Source of the DNA: Ascidiella aspersa
Lineage: Eukaryota
NCBI GenBank assembly: GCA_963924565.1
Contig: OZ004615.1
Span: forward strand, 18,228,001-18,292,000
Direction of reading: 5' to 3'
Length of the DNA stretch: 64,000 bases
Below, piece after piece: positions 2,903 to 29,700 of this stretch. Every line of letters starts with the position of its first letter. The first letter of the stretch is position 1. Position numbers and translations under genes: made by a program. The notes beneath the pieces were generated by a model. The model was not told the origin of the DNA and made no database searches. It saw nothing but the letters and a program-made list of their open reading frames with translations.

Positions 2903-5900
2903 TCAGTGACAACATTTACCGGTTGATCCACCGGCCGCATCTTGGTTTAGATTTTGTACTTCGGGTCCAGGACGATTGGGTCCGCCATCGTTTTTGGGCA
3001 ATTTTTCAGCTTCAAAACGCAAAGGTTTGGTCATGAATTATATTTTTAAACATTTTTTTTAAACAATACATTTTATCATTGTCTAAAGCAGTGATTCTCC
3101 ACGCGGCTCTCAGAGCCGCATGCGGCTCTCCACTGTACATGTTGCGGCTCTCACTAACGGAGTGAAAAATTAGTTAGCAGTAGCAGAACTGCAACAAAGG
3201 AAGTAAGAGGAATCAAGAATTAATGAATTTGATCAGCAAGGATCCCGAGTACGAAGTACTAATGTTACCGAGTACTTCCGTCCGGCTCTTTAAAATAATT
3301 TTGTGGTTTGTTACGTCACAATATATTTAGTCCTGATCGCCAAGCTATGGCAATAGGCAAAGCTATGGCAAACACTGTTAATTAGTTAGCCTAGGCTAGC
3401 GTGATGTATATTTGTTGTTTTCTTGTTGCTATTTTAATGTTTTTTAATTATATGCCTAGTGTTTTTTTTATGCGGCTCCTTGCAAATCTTAGGTTTGAAA
3501 TGCGGCTCTGGCTCTAAAAAAGGTTGAGAATCACTGGTCTAAAGTTTAGACCGGGTTTGGCAATTTTTTCTGCTAACGACCAGTTAAGTCAGGCAATATT
3601 TAGCACACTCTAATGCAGGGGTGGGCAATTATTTTTAACCGCGGGACGCATGAGAATCTTAAAATGCTGTGGTGGGCCGGATCAAAAATAGAATCTCAAA
3701 TACATAAAAAATATGACGTCATACTCGGACACTATAAAACAAATAAGCGAAAGAACTTGTTATTACGTTAGGAGTGAAAATAAATAGAAAAATAGTGTGA
3801 CTATGAACTATTTGTTTTAAAATGCAAACTTTAATTTAGACATAGAGGGTGACGTCACACATTTTGCACAGATAAAAAATGTAGACTACTTAATGGATTG
3901 GCGTTGATTAAATTGTTGGGCTTATGACCAAAAATCAGGCTTCAAGTTACAGATGTGTTCCTTGCGGTACAATGGCCATATTGCCAGATGTTACCCATGT
4001 CTGCTCTAGGGTTTGCTCAAAGACTATGTAATGTGATTACTCAAGTTTATTTTCCTAACCAAACAAACACAACTATCAAAGTTGACCAAACAATGAAAAG
4101 GCAAACTGTAGTACTTTATCCTTACAACAGTCACTTACCAATAGCTAAAAAGATATCATTGACATGCATTGCTGTTTTGGCAGAAGTCTCCATAAACAGA
4201 AGTCCATTTTCTTCGGAATATGCTGCTGCCTCCTGCAAATACACATCATATCTATTAGCTTTTTTATATATACTTTTAAGGCTATAACTTAATAGTGGTG
4301 TTGTATTGAAAACAGTAAAACCAAGAGTTGTTTTCACAGCATATCACATCTGCAAACTGAAAGTTGTCAGACTTGTGAAGCATGTGATTTTAGTATTCCG
4401 CTGCAGACACCAAAACCACTGAGCCATATAATGCCAATACTGCCCAAGGCCAGTGATTATCTTTAAACTTTGACACGATTACTGGCCACTGCCCTGACTG
4501 ACTGCCCTACCACAGCTAACTTCATATTGATTATTTGTTTTTCGAAGCTGCCAGGCACACAATAAGGACTATACAAGAATTGCATGAATTATGACATTGC
4601 CTCCTAACATAAAGCTATATATAGAATCCATTCTCAATTGACATGTTGGTAATGTATAACAACATGTATTCTTGTTGAACTACTGTTTTCTATAATTACT
4701 CATGCATTTGAAATCATGTTAAATTTATCTTGCATACAGTCTAACCTGTAATTCTTGATTAATTAAATGTTACTTTCTAAGCACTTTGACACAAGCATGT
4801 GAAAAAAATTATATTCCAAATAGGTGTGAAAAAGCGCATATGGGTTCCTGGCTTTTAAAGAAGTCTGTGTTATGTTAAACATGTTGTTTTCAGTTATATT
4901 CAACTTTGAAACCCCACCAAGTCAACCTAACTATCATATTACAAAATCTGTACTGCATATAAAAACTTGTAATATGAAAACCACGCTAATGAGTAAAATA
5001 TCTGAATGTTTTTTACTATTTTAGAAACGATTATAGACCATCTTTATACATATAAAACTGAGAAAAGAGTGTTATAAAATACAGTGTTTGTTCTAACCAA
5101 TAACAATTTAGTTTTTCTCAGATACAGTTTAGCAACAAGATTATGAATTTTGAATAATTAATTATTATTAAACATGACAGGAAAGATTTCAAATAAATCT
5201 GACATAATGCTAACGTGTCATGCGGTTACTAATTTATTAATAACACAAGTAATACAACGGTTATGGATTCTAACTAAAACAAATATAATAATGCAGTACA
5301 AAAAAAAAATATAAATTCCACCCAAAATTATTTAATTTTGCCTAGCTACAGTTTATTTTTTAATAGTAATACAAGGCAAAATGCCCAATGTTACACAGGT
5401 TAAATCTAGGGTATTTACTAATAACAATCCTGTGCCACCTTTTGGTAAATATCAAACGCATATTGCCTGTGACAAACCATTCTCAGGTATCGTTTAAAAA
5501 AGTGTAAAATTCCATCCAGCTGTGGCCTCTTATTAACTATTAAATATTATGCTGTACCATCCTGTATTAATTTTCTAAAACAGTGTGTTAAAGCCAAACA
5601 TTTTTTCATGTTTCAGTATTTAAGCCTTGGTTAAAAAAATTCAGACAAATATTGATTGGTAGTTGGTAGTGTTGCATTACCTCATGGTCGACCATTCGTT
5701 TATTGGACAAGTCAGCCTTGTTGCCAGCAAGGGCGATTACAATGCTGGGACTTGCTTGTCGCTGGAGTTCTTTAACCCACGTCTTAGCTCGTGCAAAGGT
5801 GTCCTGAAACACAGTACAAAACAATAGTAAAGTACAAAAAACATATTACGTAAGTTCTTTCCTTATCAGGGGACATAGTTTCAGTTTTAACAAACTAAAA

Positions 5901-8900
5901 CATACCATTTTGTATGACATACAGTCAAAGCAACTTTATTGTCAGCTAGAATTCTTGAGTTTTGTTCATAAGCACTTAACACTATATCTCACAGTACTGA
6001 ACAACTAAAAATAATTCAGTCTTTTTCATTAAAAAACTCCCCAAGCTGGTTCTTTTTAAATCAAAAATGAGTGATGTTCAAACTTCAGGCAAACAAAATA
6101 ATTTCCTGTTGATTGCCAGACTTAGGTGGTTACCAAGTTTGTTTAAGACTGATAAACTTTTTATAGAATTGGAAGGTATAAAAGTATTTTGTGTATGATT
6201 AAATTCATTCATCAGACCAGCGTGGTCCAACTTCTTTTCATCGCGGGCCAAAAATTTTTTTTCAAATAGCGATTCAGGCTTATTGCTGGCAAATTATACA
6301 TAGCCCATGGCAGTGATTCTTAACCTTTTTTCAGCCGCGCCCCACTTTGATAATTTTCATAGGCCTTTCGCCCCCCCCCCCCACGCCGCTACGAAAATCA
6401 ATTCAGCATTTTCAATTAAATATCACTAAGACAACTTGAAAATAGTAAAGTTTGTTGTCGATCGCGCAAAGCGCGAAATAAATTGAGTTTAATTGGTTGA
6501 ATTGACGCTAAACTGTAAATTCAGGAGGGTTTTCACATTGATTTAAACAGTACGTTATCTTGTTTCAAAAGATGTGACGACACACAATACAACGGCCATA
6601 TTGCAAAAACATTATAGATTCACGCAAAAAAGTTTGATTTCCCCTGTTGCAAGCCTGTTGTCATATATAAAATATGGATTAAAAATAGTTTGAACGGGAG
6701 ATGACTTTCATCGTTTATCTATAAGTTAGAAAAAAATGTAATTAAATAGGGCCATTATACATTCGATGATATGAAAACATGCAAAGGCACTCAAAGAGAC
6801 TTTGGGCTAAAACATTTCTCGCGAAGCTCGAAAATTTTTTGCAGGTTTAATGTAAAACATTGCAAAAACAGAGTTTGTAGCCTACAGCGCTGTAGGAATG
6901 GTGTAAAACCCAAACGAAACAATTAAAATCTTTGCAAAAAATTTAAAAATTAACTTGGAGCTTGTGTGCCCCTAAGAATTGCTTGGCGCCTCCCTAGGGG
7001 GGCGCCCCCAGAAGCGCTGGCATATGGCTTATATACTAACTTAACTTGATTTAAATATTTTTAACAAATGGCTTGACTTGGCCATTGAGTCGAATGGGTT
7101 GAAATTAAGTGTTTTCATCTAACATGTTATTATAAAATTAAGTACTGGTTCATTACACTTATTTCCAATTTACCTTCACATAAAAAAGCAGATGTTTTTT
7201 TAGTAAAATAATTTTCAAAGTTCAGCCATTGTACCAGGTGGTTTACTGACTGTGACATTCAACATTTTATAAGAAAAAAATCCGCAATTTTTCTAATTTC
7301 CAATTTTTCCAATCAACACTCAAATTAACGTCTTACTTAATTGTTTCCGAGGGGCTAGATCACAGAAGTTATTAAACACATATGTTTGTGTGTGTCTTTC
7401 ATTAATTGTTTGGACTTTTACAATGTTTTAAATGCTTGTTTATTGTGTTTTTAGTAGTTGCACAAGTGTGAATTGTCTTTGGAATTTATCATAAGGCATC
7501 GCCAATCAACCAATAGAATCCAATTGATCCAACAACACCAAACTTTTCAATACACAAATAAATTCACAAAGATTCAAAGACTTGGTGATAATCCTGCAAT
7601 ATTTAAGGGTGCTGGTAAAACTAGATTTTTTTTATTGAGTGCAATGCAACACTTAAACTTAAGACAAATTCTGTCTGTTTCATAAAACGTTGATAATGAT
7701 AAATATTCCGCATGTAACCTTGTTGGTGAGTGGCTTAAAATTGACCTGAACCACCTAGTAGTGTATTATAGAGATAGACCGATATATCTGTTTACCGATG
7801 ATATCGGCCGATAATTGGCTTCTACCGATATATCGGTATCGATAAATGTAGGCCGATATTTTAGTACAAGAATACGATAAAAATTTTCCTGTAGAACAAA
7901 CAACTTACCCATTTTTCGATCAAACAAATTTTGGTTTTAGCATCACGCCAAGTTAATATGCAAAATAATAGTTTAATAATTAATAAAAGGTATATAAACT
8001 AAAACGGTATTTGGATTTTTCTTTTTTAATTTAAGTTTTGAACATTTCCCGGGTAAATAAAAAAATTAGTATCCGTTGATCAGGTATTGTATTGGTCCTA
8101 AAAAGTCATATCAGTCGATCCCTAGTGTTTTTTACACCCTGAATTTCTAGTCATGCGTCAAAACGCCCTGGAATTTTGACATGCAAGGAAAACTATAAAG
8201 ACAACACAAAACATGCCCTCAGGAACACAGTTTAGGTTAATTAACATTGTGCAATACTTTCCTAAATTAAGGCGTGGGAAGGTAACATCTGCAAAAGTAT
8301 TGCACTGCCTCCAAATATATAAACCAAAGCACTGAAATGATATGATTTCATTTAGTAATGAACAATTTGTTCTGGCAAAATTATAGGAGACACAAGCATT
8401 GTTCTATTTATAACATGCGGAAGCGCAGAAATGGTTTTCCAAGAGCTTCGTTGAAAAAAAAAACGCCTTGAAATACACATTGGTCAGCTAGTCCAATAAT
8501 ATTTAATTAACAATATAACTAACAACCAAACGAAAGGTATCAAAATTGACAAGTAATTCATTGTGCGACGGCATGGCGTCATACTACTTGCTTGCATACA
8601 AAGCAAGCAGTCTAAATGTTTTGGCACCATGAGGGGCATAAGCATTTAAATGAGTAGCAACCTCCTGTATCTCAACATTGTATTTAAAAAAAATTGTAGC
8701 CGTTACAATTACTAATTACCAATAAATGCAATTATATAAATCATTGGCGTTATAACCAGTTTAGGCAGTGCTCAGTCACACATCTATTAGCATAGTAACT
8801 TAATTGCAAGAATGCTATCCTTGATAACAAATTATATCTGGGCATAAGTTGACAATAACTGAATAATTTGGGTTAAAGTGTCTATTTAAAGTGAGAATGA

Positions 8901-10300
8901 TATTTTTAATTCATTTTTCTTTATTTTAGGAAAAAAAACATAACATTAGTCCAGAATGCTTGTTGGCTGGGCTGCTGAGTCGGTTAAAAATGTCGCGAGT
9001 CGAAATGCGCATTTCGTTAAGTCTAGAGTCAGGCTCCGACTCTACAGTCTGTATTTCACTTATTTAAATTATACAAATTGGATGGATATTGGATATACAG
9101 CAATCCACTCATGGGGGTATAGACATGCTGGTATGCCTAGTTACTATTACAGCTTGTGGCCTTAACAGTTTTAAAATATGGTATGCCCATGTCAGGCTTG
9201 GGACTCAATAAGTCTTACATAATCATACTCAAGGCCCAGAGTCTGACTCCAACAAAACGAACCAACTCTGACAAGTCTTAACAAGTCGCGTTCTGACTCC
9301 GTCACCCTGCTTGTGAGTCGTAATAACTTTTAGCTACTTGATTCCAACAACCCGCAGTAGAACTTTCACAATCCCTACTAATGAAAGTTAATATAGTGCA
9401 TGGTTGTTGAAAAGCAAAAAAAAACAAGTGTTTGACTAAACAACAACATAATATTTGGTAAACTGATATAAATTCGTAAAGCACACCTGATTTGTTATAT
9501 CGTACACAACAATAGCTGCTTGTGCTCCTCTATAGTACATCGGTGCGAGGCTGTGATATCTTTCCTGGCCTGCTGTGTCCCAGATTTCAAACTTAACAGT
9601 GGTATCTTGCAAGCAAACGGTTTGAGTGAGGAAGGCCGCTGTAAAGTGCAAAACAAGTAGTTATTATTTGACGAAAATATTAAGATAACATAGAATAAGA
9701 TAATTATGAGCTTTGTGTAAAACACTCAACCCTGGTGTAATTTGTTTGACAAATTGTTAAAATAGATTTATCATCTACTGAATATAATGTAAATATCAAA
9801 CATATTTTATAATGTCAATTTACTTGACCTATTTGCCTTAGCGTTCAATATTCTTTATTAAAGATATGTGCATAGTTTACATAAAATTAATCATTTTATT
9901 AAATAAAAGCTAATAAAACATAAAATAGTTTAAATAACATTAAACTAATGATTTATCAGATAAATTTTAACACATTTAAAACATACCACAAAGTTTTTAC
10001 CATAATTCAAAAATATAGTGCTTTAAAATCAAAGTTCATGTTTTAAATAATTGGGCAATTTTTGACTTTGTTAGAGTTGTATAATGTATAAAAGCTGTCA
10101 TGCCCACAATAAACGAGCAAAGGTAAAAAAGGCAGCATTGCACAGTTACCTCCGATTGTGGATTCTTGATATTCGTGAAATTGTCCTTTGACAAACCTTA
10201 ATACCAAACTACTTTTGCCAACTGCTGATTCACCAAGCAGGACCAACTTAAATTGGCATATCTTTCCTTGCGCTGCATTTGCCGTTCGTTGAGCTGACAT
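2903..10300 (-). CDS. RAB5: Rab5 small GTPase (early endosome), 5 coding exons, 208 aa
   Basis: Exons 10300-10150, 9638-9487, 5803-5681, 4232-4139 and 3009-2903 are all GT-AG and total 627 nt in frame. Motifs: [15 protein letters not shown] effector, [28 protein letters not shown], and C-terminal prenylation GKCCH*. Confidence 0.98.
3089..3536. mobile_element. hAT/Charlie-like MITE in the last Rab5 intron
   Basis: TIR CAGTGATTCTC/GAGAATCACTG; perfect 8-bp TSD GTCTAAAG (3081-3088, 3537-3544); GCGGCTC subterminal repeats. Confidence 0.92.
6218..7050. mobile_element. Nested MITEs: outer element from 6218 (right end unresolved), inner element 6311-7019
   Basis: Outer end CAGCGTGGTCCAACT is homologous (inverted) to 29545-29664. 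Inner CAGTGATTCT...AGAAGCGCTG has a degenerate TSD GCCCATGG/GCATATGG. Confidence 0.75.
7769..8124. mobile_element. MITE with TAGRGAT..ACCGAT termini
   Basis: TAGAGATAGACCGATAT / ATATCAGTCGATCCCTA inverted ends; repeated CCGAT/ATCGG motifs; TSD GTGTATTA/GTGTTTTT. Confidence 0.75.
8967..9309. mobile_element. Degenerate MITE with GACTC subterminal repeats
   Basis: CTGGGCTGCTGAGTCGG ... CTGACTCCGTCACCCTG ends resemble the termini of the 28900-29382 element. Confidence 0.5.
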
Positions 10301-11263
10301 TTTTCTTTTTGTTAGGGAAGTTTATATACAGAACTTTGAAATAAATTGAACAATATAAAACAAAAAGTCTGCGATTATATTTAATGCTAAAATTAAAAAG
10401 AAATTCTTAATAATAAGTAAAAAAAGCATTCAAAAAGTGAATTAATTATATAGTCCACTCATAAATGTAAAAATATAAACACTTAGCTGTAAATTTTAGC
10501 ATTAACTTAAGTACATTAACTTTTCGATAAATTTTAGGCTGCCTAAACATCTTCCTTGCAAAGTTTTCAATCTGGGTGAATAAAAGTAGGCATAAAATCA
10601 TTTTATACAGGAATACAGGATTTTAACATCCTTATTTTTACTTTGTATAAGCGCCAACATTCTATATAACTTTTGAATGGGTGGCTTTGAGAACAAGTGT
10701 CTGAGTTTACAGAACAGAGGAATTCTGCAAGGCTATTACATAACATGTCAATAAAAAATGTGCGTTACTTTAGGATTGAGAATCTTGGTGTTAATTTTTG
10801 GCGCTTAACTAATTAGGACAAACAAGAGCAAAATTGAAGAAAAACAAGGTTATACAGGTATGCACGGCTGTGTTTACTTGTGCTTCCTACATTTTGGTTC
10901 TAATTCATAGACATGATAATTATTTTATTATTTTGTCGTAAATTAAGTTGGGGTTTAAATAAAACATCAAGCTGAAATAGATAGCTCTCAATCCACACCT
11001 ATGCAAATGTAATCAACAAAAGATTGTTTCAAACCTCACTAGTAGGGCACAATCACTTTTACTTTGTGGATGTTAATGATTAAATATTTTTAACACGTTC
11101 AAAACAGTTTTAACTTACACAAAAGCACATTAAAAAAAACGATTTTATTTACAACAAAAACGACTTCAGTATATCAATAGATTTGCATAACATATTTCTA
11201 TTCTTAAATCCTAATGTAAAATTTATGGCAAATAAGCAATTCTCGATATCTTATTAAAACAGT

Positions 11264-11462
11264 GGGGGCTAGTCTAGAAACCACAACGCACATTATTTGG
11301 GTTAGGGTGCGGGTTAGCGTTTGGGTTAGGGTGGGTTATGCAATATTATTAAAAAATGAATATAATAATACTTGATTCACCAACACCCTAACGCTAACTC
11401 GCACCCTAACCTAAATATTGTGCGTTGATTTAATAACTGTGGTAGGATTCTAAACCAGCGCC
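11264..11462. mobile_element. Palindromic (foldback) MITE with telomere-like GGGTTA units
   Basis: Inner arms at about 11284-11321 and 11390-11428 are near-perfect inverted repeats. The termini are shared with 17630-17832. Confidence 0.75.
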
Positions 11463-12819
11463 AAACGGTGTTTAGAGCATTGTAAGGACGCATATACCGA
11501 TATGAAACAAGATCACACAAATGTTAGTCATTGTCCTAGCCCGGGGTGATATTTTTCAAGACAAATCAATCGATTAAATTTGTTAAGTTTGCGATTTTTA
11601 TGAAACTGCAATCAGTCAACAGTTGACGCAACAATGGTCTTTTTAAAACGTCTAGATTTCGACGAGGTTCTTTGAAAGTATTCATGGGAAACGAAAATTT
11701 ACAAGCGTTTTGATGAACGCTACCCAGCATACTATATGTAATATAACTAACTATACATCATAGATATAACTGCTTAAACTTGCAACTGTCTAACATGTCC
11801 AAGAAAGTTTTTGTTATGTCTCAAGGCTTGTCTAAAACTTTCACATAAAATATCCAAAAATGGTGGACGTAATATTGTGAATGCAAACAATGGCAGATTG
11901 GCAGGTGATTAAGCAAAGTTAGGGGGCGCTCTAACTTGTTTGGGCGTTAAAATCCACAAAAGCAACGTCATACTTTCAATGGTTTCCTACAATTGCTCCA
12001 AAGTACTTAAAAAGTCATTTTTTATGTAAAGTTGTTTGTTATTTCAAATTTCAATTACATAAAAAAAGGTTTTTCAACACCCAAGTTAAATAAATGTTTT
12101 CCAACGCCCTTAGCTGCAACTTGCAATACCAGTCACATAAAAACTTGGATAATAATTTGTTTTTTCGTGCGAATAAAATTTGATTTCGTCACCGATCAGA
12201 ACACTGTGTTTTCTATTAAGGATTCACTGCACTACAATGATAACAACTTTTTTATTTTCCATGATAGACCTATCTTAATCATAGATCAGAACTGAAAAAA
12301 CTAAAGAATAAATTCAACCTCTAAACTTTAAATAGCAGAATAGTAACATTCTGTCTTTTCTATACTGAAAAGGGGACAACAAAGTTTTAAATCTGCATGA
12401 ATAAAATGTAATTTATCCAAATAAATTGCACACCAAACCTAAAAAGCTGACACAATAAAGAATCACGTTTTGAGATGGGTGGCAAATTCTTACAAACCAG
12501 CACAAGGCAATTTAAAAGTGCAAGTTTGCGAAAAAAACGTTCTAATAAATGAAAGCAGCAAACGCTACACACAAGAAAGCATTGTTAGTGGATATCGGTA
12601 CATCATCAATAAAAGTACAATAGTTATACAAAATTGAATAGATATAATATTCATCTAAGGGTGCGCAAGTTTTTACAACCGGTATTTTATGCGATAATAT
12701 AGTTATAATTGGTTGAAATAGAAATGCAGATTAGCTGCTGTCAAAAGTTGGCTTGATTAGATGTGGAGCATTGTCTGCTTCTGTTGGTGTTGGTAAAATA
12801 TATCTTCTCCAATTGAAAA

Positions 12820-15473
12820 TCACAACCTCTTGCGATCAGCTAATACACGGATGATGCACCCCATCCCACCCTTGGCTGTAACCTAAAAATTAAGATTTAT
12901 TGTTTTATATTAAAAGTGGTCTATATCAGGGGTGTCCAACTCAAACCTGCCGGTGTGCCAATTTTTATCTTATAATTTCTTCCGTGCCAAAGTTTCGTAA
13001 CCGAATTAATTCTTTTTAATCATAAGCGCTTTTATACCAAAAATAAGAACGTTTATTTAAAATTGAAAAAAAAACTGTCTAGTAGAAATGCGCATCACTA
13101 CATCAAAGTGTCTCTCGGTGAGCTCACTTTTGTTTCTTCACACCAAGCTATATAATATTATGTGAATGCTAGCCTCCACACAATAAAATGTTATTATATC
13201 AAAAGTAATTGTTGGTTTTCGCGATTTGCCGATTGTTTTATATTGTGAACAAACAATGGCAATTGGCTGTATAACAAACTTAGTATTTTCTGATAAATGG
13301 CTGAATGACAAATTGACCTTTTTTGGCAATTGGCTAAATAACAACTTTAGTATTTTTGGGGAGGGCTTGCGTGCCGCTTGTTGGACACCCCTGGTCTATA
13401 AGGAAACAAGTGAAAAAGTTTCTTTTTTGACTAGTATAATCTTGCAGCAAACAACTTTTGCACATAACTACAGTCAGACTCCTTTAATCCAGACCACATT
13501 GTTTTGGTACAAAATACTGGTTTACAGAGTCAACTGGGTTAAAACCAATTAATTTTGCCAGTGTAGCACTTGGTTCACTAAACTAATTTTAAATCAAAAA
13601 AATATTATTAGTAAAACCACAACATTATTATGCATATCAATTGGATAATTGTTATGTCCGACTACTACCGTAAATAAGAAAATGGTAATTAATAATAATC
13701 ACTTCAAATGTTATAAACCGGTTTGGGTAGATTTATTGGAAATATTTGATGACTTTTTGTTTTTAAGGGATATAACAAACATGTCAGATTAGGGTTATAA
13801 TGAAACAAGAATAAATCCGTTTCTTTCAGTTTATGTGGAATAACATGATTTTGTTTGTTTGAGGACCCATAAATAATGTCTTAAAGTATATATTTAAAAA
13901 AACTTTGAAGGATGGTTTAAAGAAATATATGGAAACCTAAAAACAACCAGCACAAACCTTTTCATGCCAAGTAAGCAGTGTCCCACATTGTCCTCCATCT
14001 AGGTTGAGTGAAAAGCCTTTGTAGATGTACTTCATTAGTATATCAAGCTCATCAATGTCCAGGCTATTCACAGCATTTGCAATCTCACTTGATTTCATTG
14101 AGGCCATTACACGAATTACTAACATTGTGGAATTTTCCTGCCCAAAATATATTGGTTAAACATAAATTGTCAAATTTCAATAATAATTAAAGACAACCAG
14201 CCAAAAAATATGAGGAGAAGGTTTGGCTAGGCTTTAAATAGGAAATATTTTATTTGAACAATTGCATAATCACATTTTTCTATAAAGAGTATTGTAATAG
14301 TCTGTGTTGCACCCTGAAAACCAGTATGATACTTATTATTATTTAATAAAGCATCCATTCAAAAAATTATAAAACCAATAAATGTTAGCCAACTTGTTTA
14401 CCTTTATACAGGCATCTTTTGTTCTTACTGGTGGGCTTTGAAGAGCTGCCTTCAGTGCTGGCATGTTTTTGCCACTAAACATTTAAATTTTAGTAGTTAA
14501 GGAAAATGCTACACCGAGGTGAATAAACAAAATACTTTTCTAACAGGGTGGTGCAAATATTTGAGCAACAGGAGCTGCATTGTAAAATTCATAAGTTAAA
14601 AGAGTCCCATAAAATGGATTTAATGAGTTTAATTTCTATCGCAATAGCCGGAAATTGTTGATGTTTGGTTCTTGGAAGCAGCAACACCTCAATGTTACAC
14701 AGGGTGAATTAATTTAATGCGGGGTTCTATAAAAAACACTACTGTTCTGTTATTATGAATTACATTATTAAACGAACGTCGTTTATATATATGGTACACC
14801 TCTCTATTGATATTAGTCTTCATAGAAGAGCCGCGAATAACATGCCGCAGAGCCGCATGCAGCTTGCAAGCCAAAAAAACTATTTTTATGTTGCTTTGCT
14901 ATTAGTATATATATAATACAATACAGGGACAAAACATCAAAGACCTAATACTGTGAAATATGGTTTACACCAGGATTATCTAAATGGGTGCTGAACATAG
15001 GACTTTGGGCAGCCATAAACAAATATATTTTGATTTTTTTTTTAATTTACAGTTGTGGTTTGTTTTTATTACAGCTTCACAAAACTCTCTCTTGTGTTAT
15101 ATATTTCATAACAATTTTTTCTGAAGTGTGACCAGGGGGGCACAAATTTTGAGAGACTACGCAAGAAAAGGACAAAAAGCATACATAGATGAGAATCACT
15201 GGTCTAAACAAACACCCAATTCCTAATGTTCACAATGATCGGTTTGTCTCATTCCTTTAACAGTCTTATATTTACCAAGTGAACAAATTTTGTTAAACTT
15301 GTCAAATAAAAGTTGAAAGAATACCCTAGAAGTAATTGGGAAACTTCTTGTTCATCAGGTCCAGTGTCTCCTTGGTCTGCTTGTTCCTCATTGAACTTTT
15401 CTTCGTCATACTGGTCAACGTCGATACGACGAAATCCCTTTGCTACACCGCCGGCTGTGACGTTCTTTGACAT
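12820..15473 (-). CDS. ARPC5: Arp2/3 complex subunit 5 (p16-Arc; ARPC5/ARPC5L pro-orthologue), 4 coding exons, 154 aa
   Basis: Exons 15473-15325, 14474-14402, 14137-13958 and 12882-12820 total 465 nt. Translation MSKNV...FRRIDVDQYDEEKF...GPDEQEV...ALKAALQSPPV...DILMKYIYKGF...LLTWHEK...GGMGCIIRVLADRKRL* matches p16-Arc signature blocks. Confidence 0.97.
12927..13393. mobile_element. hAT-like MITE in ARPC5 intron 3
   Basis: TIR CAGGGGTGTCCAAC/GTTGGACACCCCTG; TSD GTCTATAT/GTCTATAA; inverted homologue at 21627-22430. Confidence 0.9.
14475..15324 (-). other. U12-type (minor spliceosome) GT-AG intron 1 of ARPC5
   Basis: Donor GTATTCTTT (consensus RTATCCTTT, one mismatch). Perfect branch site TTTTCCTTAAC at 14506-14496, about 22 nt from the AG. 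No polypyrimidine tract; phase 2. Confidence 0.85.
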
Positions 15474-16109
15474 TTTGAGTTCTACAACAAAAACCAAATA
15501 CTTTAGAACTGCAGTAAACAATATGCAAAATATAAAGATTTGCCAAACTGCACAAAGGGATGAACATCCATAAATTCTTGCATGAAATAGTTATTTGTTT
15601 TTCACACTATTTTATGTTTCCTAACATCGTTATACATTTCATTTTAGTGTGCTTACTTTTGATATTTCTTTATTTATAAAAAATTATGTGGCAAAAAACT
15701 CATATATATATATATACATTTTAAATTGTATAAAGGAGTGCAACTCACCTATAAAAAGAGCTGAAGCCTAGACAATATTTACAAAGATATGTGTATATAT
15801 CTGCAATAATACCAAACAAACATTTGTATTTTACAAATACATGTAGTAATTTAATACAATATAATAATGTATGTAGCATAATATAACTATCTTTCGCTAC
15901 AGCGAACGATACAGTAAAAATGTACTTCATTTAGTTTTCAATTAATGTCATTGAGAAGAAAAACACTTTTGAAAATTGTTTAATATTAGTAGTAATGTCC
16001 AATCTAACTCTAGTGATGCTGTGACTTTAGCGCTCATAAAACTGGAAAGCAGCTACTAAAAATAAAGCACCACATATTGTAAACTTTAAAGTATAGGTTT
16101 GTCCATCGG

Positions 16110-16994
16110 TTATTTTCTTTTGGAGTCCTTGATCTCCTTCGGAACAACAGTGTATTTCTGGGCCACTCTGAGAGCTGGCGAGTATCCGTCAGCATAAGAA
16201 TTGTCTTCAAACAAAACAAGGTACTCGTCCACGGCAGATTTAGGCTGCTCGCTAATAATTGCTCTGTAAAAGCAGGTGGTTTGAGGATACAATGCCATGA
16301 CCAAAGTACCCAACTGAAATAAAGCCTCAGGGTCAGTTTCAGGGTTGGCTTTCCACTGCGGCAAAGGCACAACCCTTCGCTTGCTAAGAGTATGACAAGC
16401 CCTGCCTTCTTCATCTATGTCGTCGACTTCATACTTTGTCGATGAGCTATTGTAAGACACAACTTCTGCAAGTATCCATTGTTCCTCTTCTTCTGTCTTT
16501 ACCTTGGCAGCAACTTTATCTCCGGGCTTTGCGATGTAGTCGGGTGCAGCACCAATTGCTCCACACAGCGCTGGAACTTTTTCGTGTGGCTTTCCAATCC
16601 ACAAAGGCAATGTCTGAGCAGCTTTTTGTAACATGCTCATTAGCACTCCGCGGCGCATACTTTTCCTGGGCTGTTCTTCTTGTACAAACGCCTGTGATGC
16701 TCGGGCAGTTATTCTCTTTTCCTCTTGCAGTGCTTTGATCTCAGCAATCAGCTCAAGGCATTTTCGTAGCAAGTCACATTCTGTGTCAGCATCTCGCAAT
16801 GCTGAACTATATAATGCTCTTAGTTTTTGCTTAAAGTAAGGTGAAATCTTTTGGTCTGATTGTACCTTTTCGTGGGTCTTTCCAATGTTTTCTAAATTGG
16901 TAAACCCACTTCGTCTTTCTGACTCAGTTTCAATAATAGTGTTGTAGAGCTCGCCAAGAAGGAGCTTTATCCTTTGGTCACTTTCAGACGTCAT
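16110..16994 (-). CDS. SGF29: SAGA/ATAC subunit SGF29 (CCDC101), tandem Tudor H3K4me reader; single coding exon
   Basis: 294-aa ORF with an N-terminal coiled coil, RRGVLMSMLQ..AQTLPLWIGKP..PALCGAI, EQWILAEVV, YEVDDIDEE, ALYPQTTCFYRA and YLVLFED..YADGYSP. An upstream splice acceptor tttttgcag| lies at 17133. Confidence 0.97.
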   Translation of the reverse strand: MTSESDQRIKLLLGELYNTIIETESERRSGFTNLENIGKTHEKVQSDQKISPYFKQKLRALYSSALRDADTECDLLRKCLELIAEIKALQEEKRITARASQAFVQEEQPRKSMRRGVLMSMLQKAAQTLPLWIGKPHEKVPALCGAIGAAPDYIAKPGDKVAAKVKTEEEEQWILAEVVSYNSSSTKYEVDDIDEEGRACHTLSKRRVVPLPQWKANPETDPEALFQLGTLVMALYPQTTCFYRAIISEQPKSAVDEYLVLFEDNSYADGYSPALRVAQKYTVVPKEIKDSKRK

Positions 16995-17629
16995 GCTTGG
17001 TTGGTTAACTAAACCATTAAAATGATTTAAACAAGTTCATAACTTTTATTTACTGTTCTAGCAATCCAACTTGTCTGTTTACCTTTATATATTACTTTTT
17101 AAGCTATTTCCTCTGCCTACATAATCATGCACCTGCAAAACAATAACATTCACAATTAATTTAGATAAATAACCTGCTGTAGCATTTCAGTCTGCATTTT
17201 ATTATACTTAACGCCAAGTGAACAGCACTAAATTTTGAGACGACCAGGTGTGCAATTAAGGTTTGTTGCACTTGCACACCACAGTGTGAAAAGTATGGCG
17301 GATCACAACGAAATCTGGGTAGTGCCCGTCCGAAAAAAAATCGGGGTGTCAGGGTGTACCAAAGGTCTGAAGTGCGACCCCCTAGTATATAGGAAAATCA
17401 GGTTGATTTTTTATTTTTTGCAGGGCAGTTTAATGAAAATACATGCGGGTTCACTTGTCACACTTTTCAGTGGTCTATCACATCTCAACTTTGAATTTAG
17501 AAGTGAAAATTAGTATTTAAGTGAGCATACACATTAATTAAAAAAAAAATTGTGGTGTGCAGCTGCCACAGAATGCTGAAATGCTAGCAGTGTCTGACCA
17601 ACTGTTAAGTGAAAAGTTTGAGCATATTG

Positions 17630-17832
17630 GGTGCTGGTTTAGAATCCTACAACTTTTTTTTAAAAAGCAACGAAAACGAGAAAATCCAAAGAACAAATAA
17701 ATTATGGGATAATAAATATAACAATAATACTTAACCAAATACTTGAAAATCAAACGCTAATTCGCAATCTAAACCAAACAACGTTGGCAATATAAACCCA
17801 GATAAAAATGTGCTAGGATTCTAGACAAGCGC
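17630..17832. mobile_element. Second, decayed copy of the foldback MITE family
   Basis: GGTGCTGGTTTAGAATCCTA ... TAGGATTCTAGACAAGCGC termini. Confidence 0.6.
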
Positions 17833-18413
17833 AGTTTATTGTGTTACCATTTCATCATTTACCTAAGGAACACATACCTAATAATCGAAATCACTTTAAA
17901 ACAGATAAAACAAGTAGCAATAAGCTTCCGTGAAAAAAATTTAGTGAAGTGTTTTACCACTGTTGTAAGTTAATTTTGTAATTAAATGGCGAAAACAATA
18001 TGCAAAGTAAAAAAAAAATACGAGGAAACCCGACATGGGTTAGTAACTTTTTGAGTTTACTCAACCGTTAAATCATAGAATACTATGTTTAAATAGGTTT
18101 AGCGTTTAAATTTAAAGGTTTTGCTTTATTCAACGACATATAAATACTGTTTATATGTCTTTGTTTTGTTGAACTTCTATAAAGTAAAATTTGTTTACTA
18201 TTGATATGTATTCTTTGACCACCGTGTTGTACAAACTATTAAGACAATGGTAAGCGTTTACAAAAAATCCTAACATTACTTCAGCGTTGCGGGTTGAAGG
18301 CTTCTGCAGATTGTAAAAAATACCAAGAAACAAACATATTATTACCCACATCAGCCCATTTAAGTTATAATTTTGACATAGGACACGTTTTACAGATTTT
18401 AGTCAGTAGTTGT

Positions 18414-18592
18414 TGACAGGGTGTCACCGAATCAGTTACAGGATTTCACTAGATCGATGACAGGGTGTCACCAAATCGGTTACAGGGTATCACTAAATCT
18501 GTGACAGGGTGTCACCAAATCAGTGACAGGTGTCACCGAATCAATGACAAGGTGCCACGAAAAATCGGTGACAGGGTGTCAGCAATTTGGTG
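18414..18592. repeat. Minisatellite, ~22-bp unit, about 8 copies
   Basis: Consensus ACAGGGTGTCACCAAATCGGTG, contiguous copies with no unique spacers. Confidence 0.9.
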
Positions 18593-21186
18593 ATACTGAC
18601 AAGGCGTCAATAAAAAGTAACAATTCCTCTATTGGGTTACTACGGGTAAGTAATGGACTGGCCCTTAAGACGAGGGCTGACGACTGCCAAAGTAGCTTTA
18701 TCTAAATCAAAGTAGCAGGCCGCTAAAAAATACCTGTCCTTAACTTCTTTAACTCTAGACACACTTCACTCAGTCGATATTGCATGTTTTTGAGTATAGT
18801 CACAAATCGCAGTAGGCCTACACACGATGGACATAAAAATGCCAAAAAATAATGTGTAGCAAACGCATTAAGTAAACTGACGTTTTAGAAAGTGCCAAAT
18901 AAATGCAAAGGCATTTGAACTAAAAATATTATTTCAAACGGTGCTGAAACATACTAACATGCAAGAAAAATACCGCACATCACCAGGTTTTTTTTAAGGT
19001 TTGGTTTGGGTGACCGATAAGTAGTTTTAAGAGACCGCAAGTGTTTCATTTTATTCGACAAGGCACAGCTTAAATGATTGTGACAGCGAATTAAATGATT
19101 GTGAATGCCCAACACGGCCGCCAAACAAGTTTGCTGCATAATCAAACAAAGTGTGCTTGTTGGCTTCTGCTTGTTGTGTTTCCACACGTTAAAACTGATC
19201 ATTATGCGCTATAAATCAGAAATAAACATTGACGAGTATCGAAGGTGCACTTCTTTGGTGAATAACTCTTTGATTCAGCTGTTAACTGTACCTCCACTTA
19301 TTCTTTTTTCCGAACGTGAACTATTAATTGTAGGCTATATATTCGTATTATCGACAAGACATAGCGAGTAACAAACATTACTTTTGTACTGTAGTTGCAA
19401 GTCCAAATTTTGGCAAAACGCTGGAGAAATTAGGGGGACCGTTTCGGTCCCCCAAAACACCTTAAAAAAAGCACTGCACATCACACAAAGAAAAAAAACG
19501 CAACGTTTTTGCAAGATGATTAAAATAGTCGAATTTGGACGAGATGATTAAAATAGTTTAGATTATAAATAAAATAGTAAAAATATAATATATTTAGATT
19601 ATTAATAAAATAGTAAAAAAAATATAAATTTGGGGGTAATGTGGATACAACATATTTTACCGATACGCCGTTCCGGCAATAGCCTAATCCTTTTGCGGAA
19701 CGCTGTTTTAGACCATTTCGGCTTGTTTTATAACTACTTTAATGATAATACGCTAATTTGTAAAAATCACACCTTTGAAAGTAGAATACACTCAACTCAA
19801 ACGGTGGCGGAAATTGTAAAATTATTTCAATAATATAAAAACACTTATTTTCTGCTTTAATCTGACAACGCATTTGTAAATCTATCGTAGCCTGTAATTC
19901 GAAAAATTGTTCACTAGGAAGTCAATAACGCACATAAGTAAAAATCAGCGCGCCCCGCTTTTCCCTATATGTTTGGTTTTAACATGAACCTAAATGTATT
20001 TTTGCGCGTCGAACGAATATATTCGGTCTTGAAAATATGAACAAAAATTAACATAACGGCCGTTTTAAATTCCATAAAACAACCCAATTTACCTTATTTT
20101 AACCAAAGTTTAGTAGAAAATACTATTATGAATTCGTGTTTCGCTCAATTTATACCTAGTCTGCAATATGACCATTGTATCGTATAGTGACACATCTTCG
20201 ACTAAAAATCTCAATAATCTTGAACGCATAAAAAGTATTTTGGTGCTTTGACCTAACTCTCTAACAGTGTTTTTGTGCAACCTTGCCGACGTTGGTTTAA
20301 CGCTCCTAAACAACTTGATAAATGCCATATCGAGTAATTTGCATATCTTTTATCTGTGCTTAATGCGTCACATTCCATCCTAAAATCTAAATTAAAGAAT
20401 TTCTAACCAAATAAATGTTTGACGCTTCGCGCGACGCCAATTAGCATTTTCTTAAATTACACTTTAGTTGGACATACGCCCACAACTCCCATATACCTAA
20501 TAAAATGTTTCTTAAGCCTATACTTTTTAAAGTGTCACGGTATTACGTCATACTGTGTATGGTTGAGATCCTATTTTGGACCCTGCCCGCTATAATATTT
20601 TATATTCATGAGGTCCGCTGTACCCCTGCTTCAGAGGGGGCAGGGTAATATTTGGATGAGGACTGCAAGCGGAACCGGACTCAGGACTTAAAGTTCAACG
20701 GATTCGGTTATTTGGCTGGTAGTTGTGCAGTCGTATGTTCTACCCCTTAAAAAAATAAATCCTTAACTTTTTGCTTCCCTCTGCTTTCGTGTCGACCTTT
20801 GTTAATACTGGTCAAATATTTCTAAATTGCCAAAAAATAAGATAGCAGAAGCACTGAAACCATATCGCAAAGAAAAAACACGCTGATGTTAATTTGCATA
20901 TTTTTACACATGAACGAACAATAATACATTTAGGAGATGGCTCGTAAAAATATAATTTAGTAGGCCTATAGGTCTTCCGCTTGCACCAGTGTTTTTGAAG
21001 TTCTGAACCTTTCATACTCGGTGGACCGTTCATAATTTCGCAATATTGTGTTAAAAAAATGCGCCATGCAACGTCACAAGTAAGGTCATTAAAGACATAA
21101 TAAAAACTACAAAGGTAATTTAATGGGACAATGATAAAAAAAATGTTTTCTTATGGCCCCCGAAGACTGTTGCGTGCCCTCCCCCC

Positions 21187-26700: not shown

Positions 26701-29700
26701 TTTGTAATTTAATCGTAAGAGAAAAGTTAACGTCAGATTAAGTAGTGTAGGAAAATATAGATGTTAGGTGTAATCTAGTTAGAATGAGATCATAATAGAG
26801 AAAAAACACGTGTGTGTGATTCTAAATGTGGAAGTGTACTTTAACGACATTCTTAAAAAACACTTGTTTCTCAGTTACAACCTAGACAGACTGTCCATGA
26901 AAATTGTTGTCGCGAAAGAGCGTTTTGCTTTAAAACGGTTTCTGTGGTCGAAGTTCTGCCGCTTATGAAACATTCCTTTTTTCCTATTCATATCATTCAA
27001 AGGTAAAGTTTCTTGTGTCCGGGTTTGTGCCTGTCAATGTGCCAAATGCAGATTACGAACAGAGATATGCGAATAGATGATGTATGTAGGCGCCCTTGTG
27101 CGGTATTGCACTGTGGTTAAGAATATTTGTATCGCAGCAAAGGCGTTTTTGTCATCCGGGTCATTACTCAAACAATTCGTATTCGCAAAACTTTGAGGCG
27201 TGAATTTTTATTGAATTTTACTTAACTTTCGAAAACTCTAGATTTTCAGTGATCGTATTTCCAGATAATGCTTTATAAAATGCGACCTTTGCTGTTGCAA
27301 AGATTATTTTGCTGTTACTGATCAGGAATTAAGGTCGACATTTATCTTGCAAGGGTCAAGGTGATTTCCATTATTCACATATCAAGTGCAACTTTGCTGT
27401 TGCATACAGGCTTCTATCACATCATGCTGTGCTGCGTTGCTCAACGAATATTACGATTGTAAACCGCCAACTACTTGTCATATTGAATTGCACATCCGCG
27501 ATTGCTGTCGACGGCAAAATATGGCTGCTCCCTTGGGTTACAATTGTTTACCTAAAGTGCGCGTTTCTCCGAATTTACAGAAAGCGAAACAGCCATCACC
27601 GCTGCTTGCCTCTTTATGGCACACCCAGATCGTTCACTGCGAGTAAACTTAAAACGCTTGTTGGCTCATGCAACTCCCTTTCCCGCGGTTGACCTTTATG
27701 ACCTGATCTTATGCTAAAGCTAAGAGGTCGGAGGTCAAATTGCCGCGACTGTGGCCGCTCCATTCGCGTTCTTACCGTTCACCATGCGACTATTCGCTGT
27801 GCTGTTTTCTGAAGTACGCTGTGTTTTTCAAACTTAGTACTAACATGCAAACGTCCGAATGTCAATTTGCCCTATCTGTGTGTTCTTACCCTTCGGGCCG
27901 TTGTTCCTAAACTGTGTTCGCCAAATCCAAAAAATGTACCGTCCGGATTTCAATGATTTAGCTCAGCATGGTCCAACTGCAGGCCCGCGGGCCAAAGTTG
28001 GCTCGCGAACTGATAGTCAGCTTTGGTTCAATCTGGCAATTTCACTTAATTTTTTGTTTTTTTTAATTTTTTGGTGTTGAAATTATTTCATAACTACCGT
28101 AACTGAACAAAGGTATACATTCCATAAAGTTAGTATATATGCCATAGAGCAGTGGTTCTCAACCTTTTTGTTCTCGCGACCCCCTTAAGTTTTCGATAAC
28201 TCGCGCGACCCCCCAATTCTTTACAAATTTACAAAACGGTTAGTCGTTAACAGCAGTGCAATCTGTCTGTAAATTCTATTTCTCTTTGCCAAAACGACAA
28301 GACCAACATTTTATTACCGGTATTCTGTGGATGTTTTGGAAAAGGCTATTTAAAATGTTATGATGCCGCTGAAAAGTAGAAATACTTTGCCTGTAACCTA
28401 TTGTAAACCTAGCACAAATTTTATTGTTACTTGGCCCAAATTTCAATTTGGAACTAAAAGCGCCATATACTACGCCTGACGCTTTAGTACTGCAGAAAAT
28501 TATTGCAGAAATACGCATCAAAATCGCGAACAATTTTTCAATTAACGTTGTTAAAGTTGGTATAAACAAAGTTTGTAGGCCTCGTGAGCCCGTGGTTTCA
28601 CTTCATCCCACAATGTTTCAAATCAATTCGGTCAAATTAGGACAGAAAGCTTACTGTCCTAATTATTTGCAAATCGTCGGACACAGCAGTTAAATTAGGA
28701 CAATTTATTGTTTTTGATTCAAATTTTAGGCCTTCTGGCAATCCTGATTTGAGCGTCCATTCATTTTTATTAGACATCGTTTGACTGAAGCTAAGTTTAA
28801 TTCATTATTGAAAAGTGTAATGGTGACGTCATTACCGCCACAGGTTCGCTGCAGCAAAAGCCGCACAAAGACAAATGTTAGACTGGCGGTTCTTTTGCTC
28901 AGGGCTGGGGAGCCACCGTAAAATAGCATTAGCTCCGGCTCCAGCTCCGGAGCCATCAGGCAATTATTAAATGGCTCCGGCTCCAGCTCCGGAGTCGTAA
29001 AACTCAATCCTTTGGCTCCGGCTCCGGAGTAGTAAAACTCATATCCTTTGGCTCCGGCTCCAGCTCCGGAGCCATCAAACACACATCCAATGATTCCGGC
29101 TCCAGCTCCGGTGCCACCAGTCACCTATTCAATGGCAAGTTTTAAAAATTGCTTCTGGCTAACTAACGTTGGAGATATAATTTCTTAGCTTTAGCACCAC
29201 AAATTGAAAAATGGCTCCAGCTCCACAAAAATAATAAAAAAGGCTCCGGCTCCACAAAAATAATAAAAATGGCTCCGGCTCCGGCTCCGGCTCCAGCTCC
29301 ACAAAAATAATAACAATGGCTCCGGCTCTGGCTCCAGAGAAAATGCTTAGCTCCGGGCTCCAGCTCCGGCTCCCCAGCCCTGCTTTTGCTCCTTATATAC
29401 TGCTAAACTGTTAGTTCATATTGCCTAATTCTTGTGATTATTTCCTTAATGAAATTGTACATGGCGACCCCCCCCCCCCCAGACAGCCCTTTGCGACCCC
29501 CCTTGGGGGTCGCGACCCCCAGGTTGAGAACCACTGCCATAGAGTAATAGACCATGTATAATTGGCCAGCAATAAGCCTAAGAATAGCAATTTAAAAACA
29601 TTGGCCCGCAAGATAAAATAAACCTTGTTTTTGGCCCGCGATGAAAATAAGTTGGACCGCCCTGATTTAGGTTGTTCGTTTTTTGTGGTCTGATGAGATG

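Follow-up and report, generated by a model that had tools for sequence, protein, structure and literature searches.

In the ascidian Ascidiella aspersa, SGF29 and ARPC5 lie head to tail on the minus strand of a 64,000-nt window of contig OZ004615.1 (positions 18,228,001 to 18,292,000; coordinates below are those of the window), as its sequence and open reading frames (ORFs) indicate, and the question raised by this locus is how ARPC5, the downstream gene, comes to be transcribed. A first-pass annotation observed correctly that an acceptor, tttttgttgtag ending at 15482, stands only 8 nt ahead of the ARPC5 ATG at 15473, and it offered three explanations: an SGF29-ARPC5 operon resolved by spliced-leader (SL) trans-splicing, a non-coding exon at about 17.9 kb that is spliced to either gene, or a short cis intron. 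Analysis of this genome (309 Mb in 75 contigs) favours the first. SGF29-ARPC5 is likely an ascidian operon without intercistronic DNA, transcribed from one promoter and split by SL trans-splicing, with a boundary that likely lies at 15801|15800 rather than at 15482. We infer that ARPC5 lacks a separate promoter. The arrangement is likely an ordinary one, a new example of a known operon type.

Four RNA or DNA runs were mapped on 12000-19000 and two on 15200-20900. X4 is a stranded raw RNA run that was picked by its species label and sampled to about 6 in 100; X3, though not recorded as RNA, is treated as such because its contig skips four introns and shows almost no depth within introns; X1 and X2, whose coverage extends over introns, are used as DNA controls. 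The joints considered are 15 of the 46 on 12000-19000 and 9 on 15200-20900, where a joint required at least 3 reads at a depth of 10-20. Acceptor 15482 is joined in cis to a donor at 15748 (ag|gtgagt) by 15 reads with 10 starts in X4 and by one contig in X3. Position 15481 thus meets 15749, and not 17878/17863 or 15657, the partners about which the first-pass annotation had asked; donor 15748 and the acceptor-like site at 15801 had both been overlooked. The proposed short cis intron is real in kind and starts at 15748, not at the gtaagc of 15656. That motif and an AATAAA at 15674-15669 both fall within ARPC5 intron 1. The AATAAA is present where it was reported, but its position within the intron (15748-15482) speaks against it as the SGF29 poly(A) signal, and one copy is observed where 1.02 are expected by chance. 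The central features are:

16110..16994, minus strand: SGF29 coding sequence, an intronless single ORF of 294 aa (Pfam PF07039, E 3e-37)
15801..16109, minus strand: SGF29 3' untranslated region (UTR), with a probable end at the G of acceptor 15801 or close to it, as the X4 depth ramp suggests; no AATAAA inside in hexamer scans
15801..15822, minus strand: putative trans-splice acceptor and operon boundary, a G+U-rich tract followed by CAG
15749..15800, minus strand: ARPC5 exon 1, non-coding, 52 nt; 3' edge fixed by joint 15481|15749 and a depth of 15 at 15758, 5' edge probable
15482..15748, minus strand: ARPC5 intron 1, GT-AG, 267 nt; spliced in X4 reads and the X3 contig, still present in X1 and X2 contigs, which are DNA-like
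15325..15481, minus strand: ARPC5 exon 2 from RNA joints, with the ATG at 15473

Where SGF29 mRNA ends and ARPC5 mRNA begins is indicated by read depth. X4 depth on the ARPC5 side is 25 at 15455 and 15 at 15758, reaches a trough of 1 at 15849 between the two genes, and on the SGF29 side is 4 at 15915, 8 at 15967, 12 at 16000, 17 at 16179 and 23 at 16247. This profile suggests that the mature ends of the two mRNAs are less than 100 nt apart on the same strand. Among the 31 AG sites in 16109-15482, the CAG ending at 15801 ties for the highest T and G+T content and is the sole CAG among the top-tied sites. Reads across joint 15481|15749 have a longest short side of 54 nt, which equals the 52-nt exon plus the AG of the 15801 acceptor. 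Sides are measured from the first base past the joint (two other exons in X3 give 73 and 182), so an upstream side of 54 nt would reach exactly to the AG at 15802-15801. Because AG also forms the end of the Ciona leader (PMC1488885, Table 1), a leader-bearing read would align over exactly 52+2 bases. The 54-nt limit therefore suggests that SGF29 and ARPC5 mRNAs likely abut at 15801|15800, which matches Ciona operons without intercistronic DNA. In simulations of two mRNAs that abut there, a depth of at most 1 at 15849 and a short side of at most 54 nt occur together in 13-15% of runs, and the short side is exactly 54 in 95-98%. The ratio of reads at the first two ARPC5 joints is 15/41 = 0.37, and 0.31-0.36 is expected if all ARPC5 mRNA begins at 15800; direct SL addition at 15482 is unnecessary to explain this ratio, and a minor share is possible. 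AATAAA is absent within 40 nt of 15801, with AATACA alone in 15845-15801.

The genome contains the machinery for such a reaction. The Ciona spliced leader followed by GT has 573 genome matches with at most 1 mismatch, compared with 1 for a reversed control, and many of these SL RNA genes, in which the leader precedes a GT donor, occur in arrays with a 584-bp period. Large SL RNA arrays on contig C3 (about 5.22-5.45 Mb) are interrupted, at intervals of a few copies, by gaps of about 8 kb; more copies lie on contigs C1 and C2, and the sequence after the donor differs among copies. In the proposed mechanism, a precursor that runs through both genes would be transcribed from a single promoter, which would lie upstream of about 17.13 kb. 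SL trans-splicing at 15801|15800 would add the 16-nt leader at 15800 and release an ARPC5 pre-mRNA, which would then be cis-spliced (a step that the joint reads document) into an mRNA of leader, 52-nt non-coding exon and four coding exons. The SGF29 3' end would form at or just before the same AG at 15801, without an AATAAA, and each precursor may give SGF29 or ARPC5 mRNA, not both, after the model proposed for Ciona (PMC1488885). The single-exon SGF29, the cis joint from 15748 to 15482, the trough at 15849-15800 and the SL genes in the genome are the observed supports of the operon. The idea that one processing choice links a chromatin reader to an actin nucleator may hold as a general property of this operon class, and not through a shared exon.

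An uncut bicistronic mRNA of about 2.1 kb, from 17121 to 12531, with both ORFs translated, is very unlikely to be the main product. X3 assembles exactly such a contig (2142 nt, gap-free across the boundary, with both ORFs), although a contig need not represent one molecule, and assembly likely pruned the short branches for leader and poly(A). X4 depth falls to 1 at 15849, and a continuous transcript reproduced both this depth and the 54-nt short side in none of about 5000 selected simulations (0/1548, 0/1734 and 0/1717).

SGF29-ARPC5 order is kept, on sequence grounds, across at least three named ascidian genera, as the synteny comparison suggested by the first-pass annotation reveals: it recurs in Ciona, Clavelina and Phallusia protein models and in metagenome contigs. 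The closest relatives of SGF29 among the best 120 of 723 matches are ascidian proteins (identity of 77% in Phallusia mammillata, 73% in Ciona, 72% in Clavelina and 70% in Styela), and two of these 120, from Phallusia and Clavelina, carry both Pfam domains. Fused models comprise CAB3228129.1 (Phallusia), CAK8674700.1 and XP_076822983.1 (Clavelina) and XP_078489244.1 (Ciona), with additions for the last two species from cluster look-ups; a search with the fused Ciona model confined both domains to the two clusters among the 96 matches listed. All four hold the same two genes in the same order. Three of 11 metagenome loci (L009-L011) have an intronless SGF29 followed 3.5 kb downstream by a same-strand ARPC5; they are ascidian-like and 99% alike and are therefore counted as one organism. 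Their ARPC5 ATG also stands just past an acceptor, and the first GTRAG donor lies 351 nt past the SGF29 stop (362 nt in Ascidiella aspersa). Their gap contains no AATAAA where 3.0 are expected (P 0.045). Intergenic similarity was not found between the window gap and the first 518 gap bases of L009 (score 25, shuffle mean 23.4). The other eight loci, mostly distant relatives, are 1.3-6.9 kb long, with no ARPC5 seen. Full-text searches found no publication on the SGF29-ARPC5 pair, and the Ciona operon catalogue may already list it; Ciona KH identifiers and operon status had no match in the portion of the supplements consulted for PMC2760879, PMC4691747, PMC4528069, PMC6952182 and PMC1488885, whose remaining files, with the KH operon track, may list the pair.

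The four public fusion proteins are likely annotation merges. If they were real, a minor read-through splice would join the end of the SGF29 ORF to ARPC5 in a fused protein, which is extremely unlikely here. Recurrence of fused models in Phallusia, Clavelina and Ciona, with three of four junctions within 3 codons of each other, speaks for such a splice. All four junctions differ, however, two of them within one species, and gene predictors are documented to merge operon genes artefactually, and often (PMC2760879). The models join the ORFs, whereas RNA of Ascidiella aspersa keeps the stop codon of SGF29 and is spliced from a donor in the UTR. No joint of this kind is among the 9 on 15200-20900, where thin depth leaves a minor isoform possible, and the last 290 nt of the SGF29 ORF contain only two GT in frame with acceptor 15482 (16396 and 16309), both in the Tudor domain. 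It is likewise very doubtful that the operon has been kept across ascidian orders because read-through splicing also makes a real chimera of a SAGA H3K4me reader and an Arp2/3 subunit, as the four models from three genera would imply.

ARPC5 might instead have a promoter of its own inside the SGF29 body or 3' UTR, with a direct start near 15800 or a short outron trans-spliced at 15800, so that the genes are close or overlapping yet independent. This is unlikely, although it predicts the same depth trough. ARPC5 depth (34-49) exceeds that of SGF29 (10.8) by 3 to 4 times, X4 depth climbs to 17-23 at 16179-16247, and two-promoter models are left open in Ciona (PMC11155486), all of which would suit it. 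Against it, the probable ARPC5 5' end coincides with the best acceptor-like AG of the interval, gene order is conserved across genera, and all 12 of 12 unbiased downstream genes of abutting Ciona pairs are trans-spliced (PMC1488885). The first-pass annotation had also cited the absence of a CpG patch ahead of ARPC5 as an argument against a promoter; this carries no weight because Ciona is reported to be without CpG islands (PMC4691747).

Several points weigh against an abutting operon as set out above. The simulated boundary was picked post hoc, in a model without GC bias (GC content is 25% at 15801-15960) or allele differences. The 54-nt short side might belong to the downstream part of a read, the depth profile would look no different with a capped start at about 15802, and a contig that spans both genes does not prove a single transcript. 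No leader or poly(A) tail appears among the loose read ends listed, where repeats dominate (those at 12.9-13.4 kb and 18.98-19.47 kb fill the listings, which run to 440 and 63 further rows beyond those displayed), and the mapped-run table lists no site at which many molecules start or stop. The 3.5-kb gap of L009-L011 leaves room for a promoter. No ARPC5 retrocopy bearing a leader was found; a genome search with Ciona ARPC5 matched this locus only.

If one promoter serves both genes, it should lie upstream of SGF29, and the start of SGF29 RNA is placed near 17121-17132 by the X3 contig start (17121) and by X4 depth (5 at 17100, 1 at 17125, with a mean of 0.26 at 17110-17300). SGF29 is single-exon in RNA, as the X3 contig has 0 gaps over 15749-17121. 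An acceptor at 17133 was proposed for SGF29; its sequence is acceptor-like (ttttgcag), and none of the 9 joints on 15200-20900 uses it, nor 17862, 17877 or 15656. The shared non-coding exon at 17.9 kb, which would splice alternatively to SGF29 or ARPC5, deserves practically no credence. Its two donor-like motifs exist (ag|gtatgt at 17877 and ag|gtaaat at 17862), but their number is not above chance (2 observed vs 0.67 expected, P 0.14), and RNA gives no support for them: neither X4 nor X3 has any depth at 17874-18637, no joint occurs there, and reads that reach acceptor 15482 derive from 15749. Depth is also zero at 19593-20900 in X4 and at 19593-20547 in X3. Remaining features of the two transcripts are:

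17117..17133, minus strand: SGF29 mRNA 5' end region, SL-spliced or capped, with acceptor-like AGs at 17133 and 17117
17862..17950, minus strand: rejected candidate for an upstream exon with donors; neither X4 nor X3 has depth at 17874-18064, and there is no joint
14402..14474, minus strand: ARPC5 exon 3; joints with 41 and 13 reads
13958..14137, minus strand: ARPC5 exon 4 (Pfam PF04699, E 1.6e-18); RNA joints
12531..12882, minus strand: ARPC5 last exon; joint 12879|13955 with 16 reads, X3 contig stops at 12531

ARPC5 runs from the ATG at 15473 to a TGA at 12822-12820 and encodes 154 aa, of which 102 of 154 are identical to Ciona ARPC5; its exons match PF04699, and its 60-nt leader contains no ATG. 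Its 3' end is near 12500, since X4 depth is 0 below 12468. That end (12420-12620) is also without AATAAA, with the next copy at 12256. SGF29, started at 16994, lacks an N-terminal extension of about 30 residues in Ciona, Clavelina and Styela models, and four short upstream ORFs of 1-7 codons each lie ahead of it at 17128-17017. Further upstream, 2-3 kb from SGF29, a stretch at 19250-20250 has an observed/expected (o/e) CpG ratio of 1.5-1.8 in AT-rich DNA, and RNA depth is absent at 19593-20547. This stretch may serve the operon as an unmethylated promoter or as outron.

Downstream of ARPC5, a Ras-family gene (Pfam Ras) occupies 5000-10300 on the minus strand, with its ATG at 10300; it resembles Rab5. 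No exon is seen to abut ARPC5 on that side, as X4 depth is 0 at 12000-12467, and a CpG o/e of 1.0-1.2 at 11001-11750 could mark a promoter of its own for this gene. A cag|8 nt|gt motif at 12447-12439 (minus strand) could be a micro-exon, or an acceptor that makes the Ras-family gene a third cistron. High-copy interspersed repeats occupy 12927-13393, 18400-18780 and 18984-19470, with summed contig depth of up to 230,900 in X2, and both strands of them are represented in RNA. At 18400-18620 the sequence is, judged by eye, a tandem array whose units are about 21 nt long, and a tandem ggctccggctcca-type repeat is nested in another repeat element at 28930-29380.

The importance of this locus is modest: it is one further ascidian operon, with its anatomy corrected. 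Its boundary is predicted to the base, and it could be a test case for how operons without intercistronic DNA are resolved through either-or use of one AG. Gene order kept in at least three named genera also provides a usable marker of old operon linkage.

Ciona has 1,310 operons with 2,909 genes, about 20% of its genes, and the first gene is single-exon in 60% of them (Satou 2008, PMC2760879). Nineteen mapped Ciona operons have no intercistronic DNA (Satou 2006, PMC1488885); the acceptor AG receives poly(A) at its G, the last 40 nt ahead of the boundary contain no AATAAA in 16 of 18, and in the authors' proposal a precursor gives rise to one mRNA or the other (PMC1488885). SGF29-ARPC5 resembles these operons in its same-strand genes, single-exon first gene, absence of AATAAA ahead of the boundary, probable position of that boundary at an acceptor AG, lack of functional relation and some apparent RNA across the boundary, and an identical 16-nt leader is present in the genome. 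It differs in belonging to another ascidian genome, in a leader junction that is inferred rather than sequenced, and in a downstream gene that opens with a 52-nt non-coding exon. Caenorhabditis SL1-type operons, as described in PMC1488885, have AATAAA in the upstream cistron where characterised, unlike SGF29, and share with SGF29-ARPC5 an intercistronic sequence that is short or absent and a single leader for all genes.

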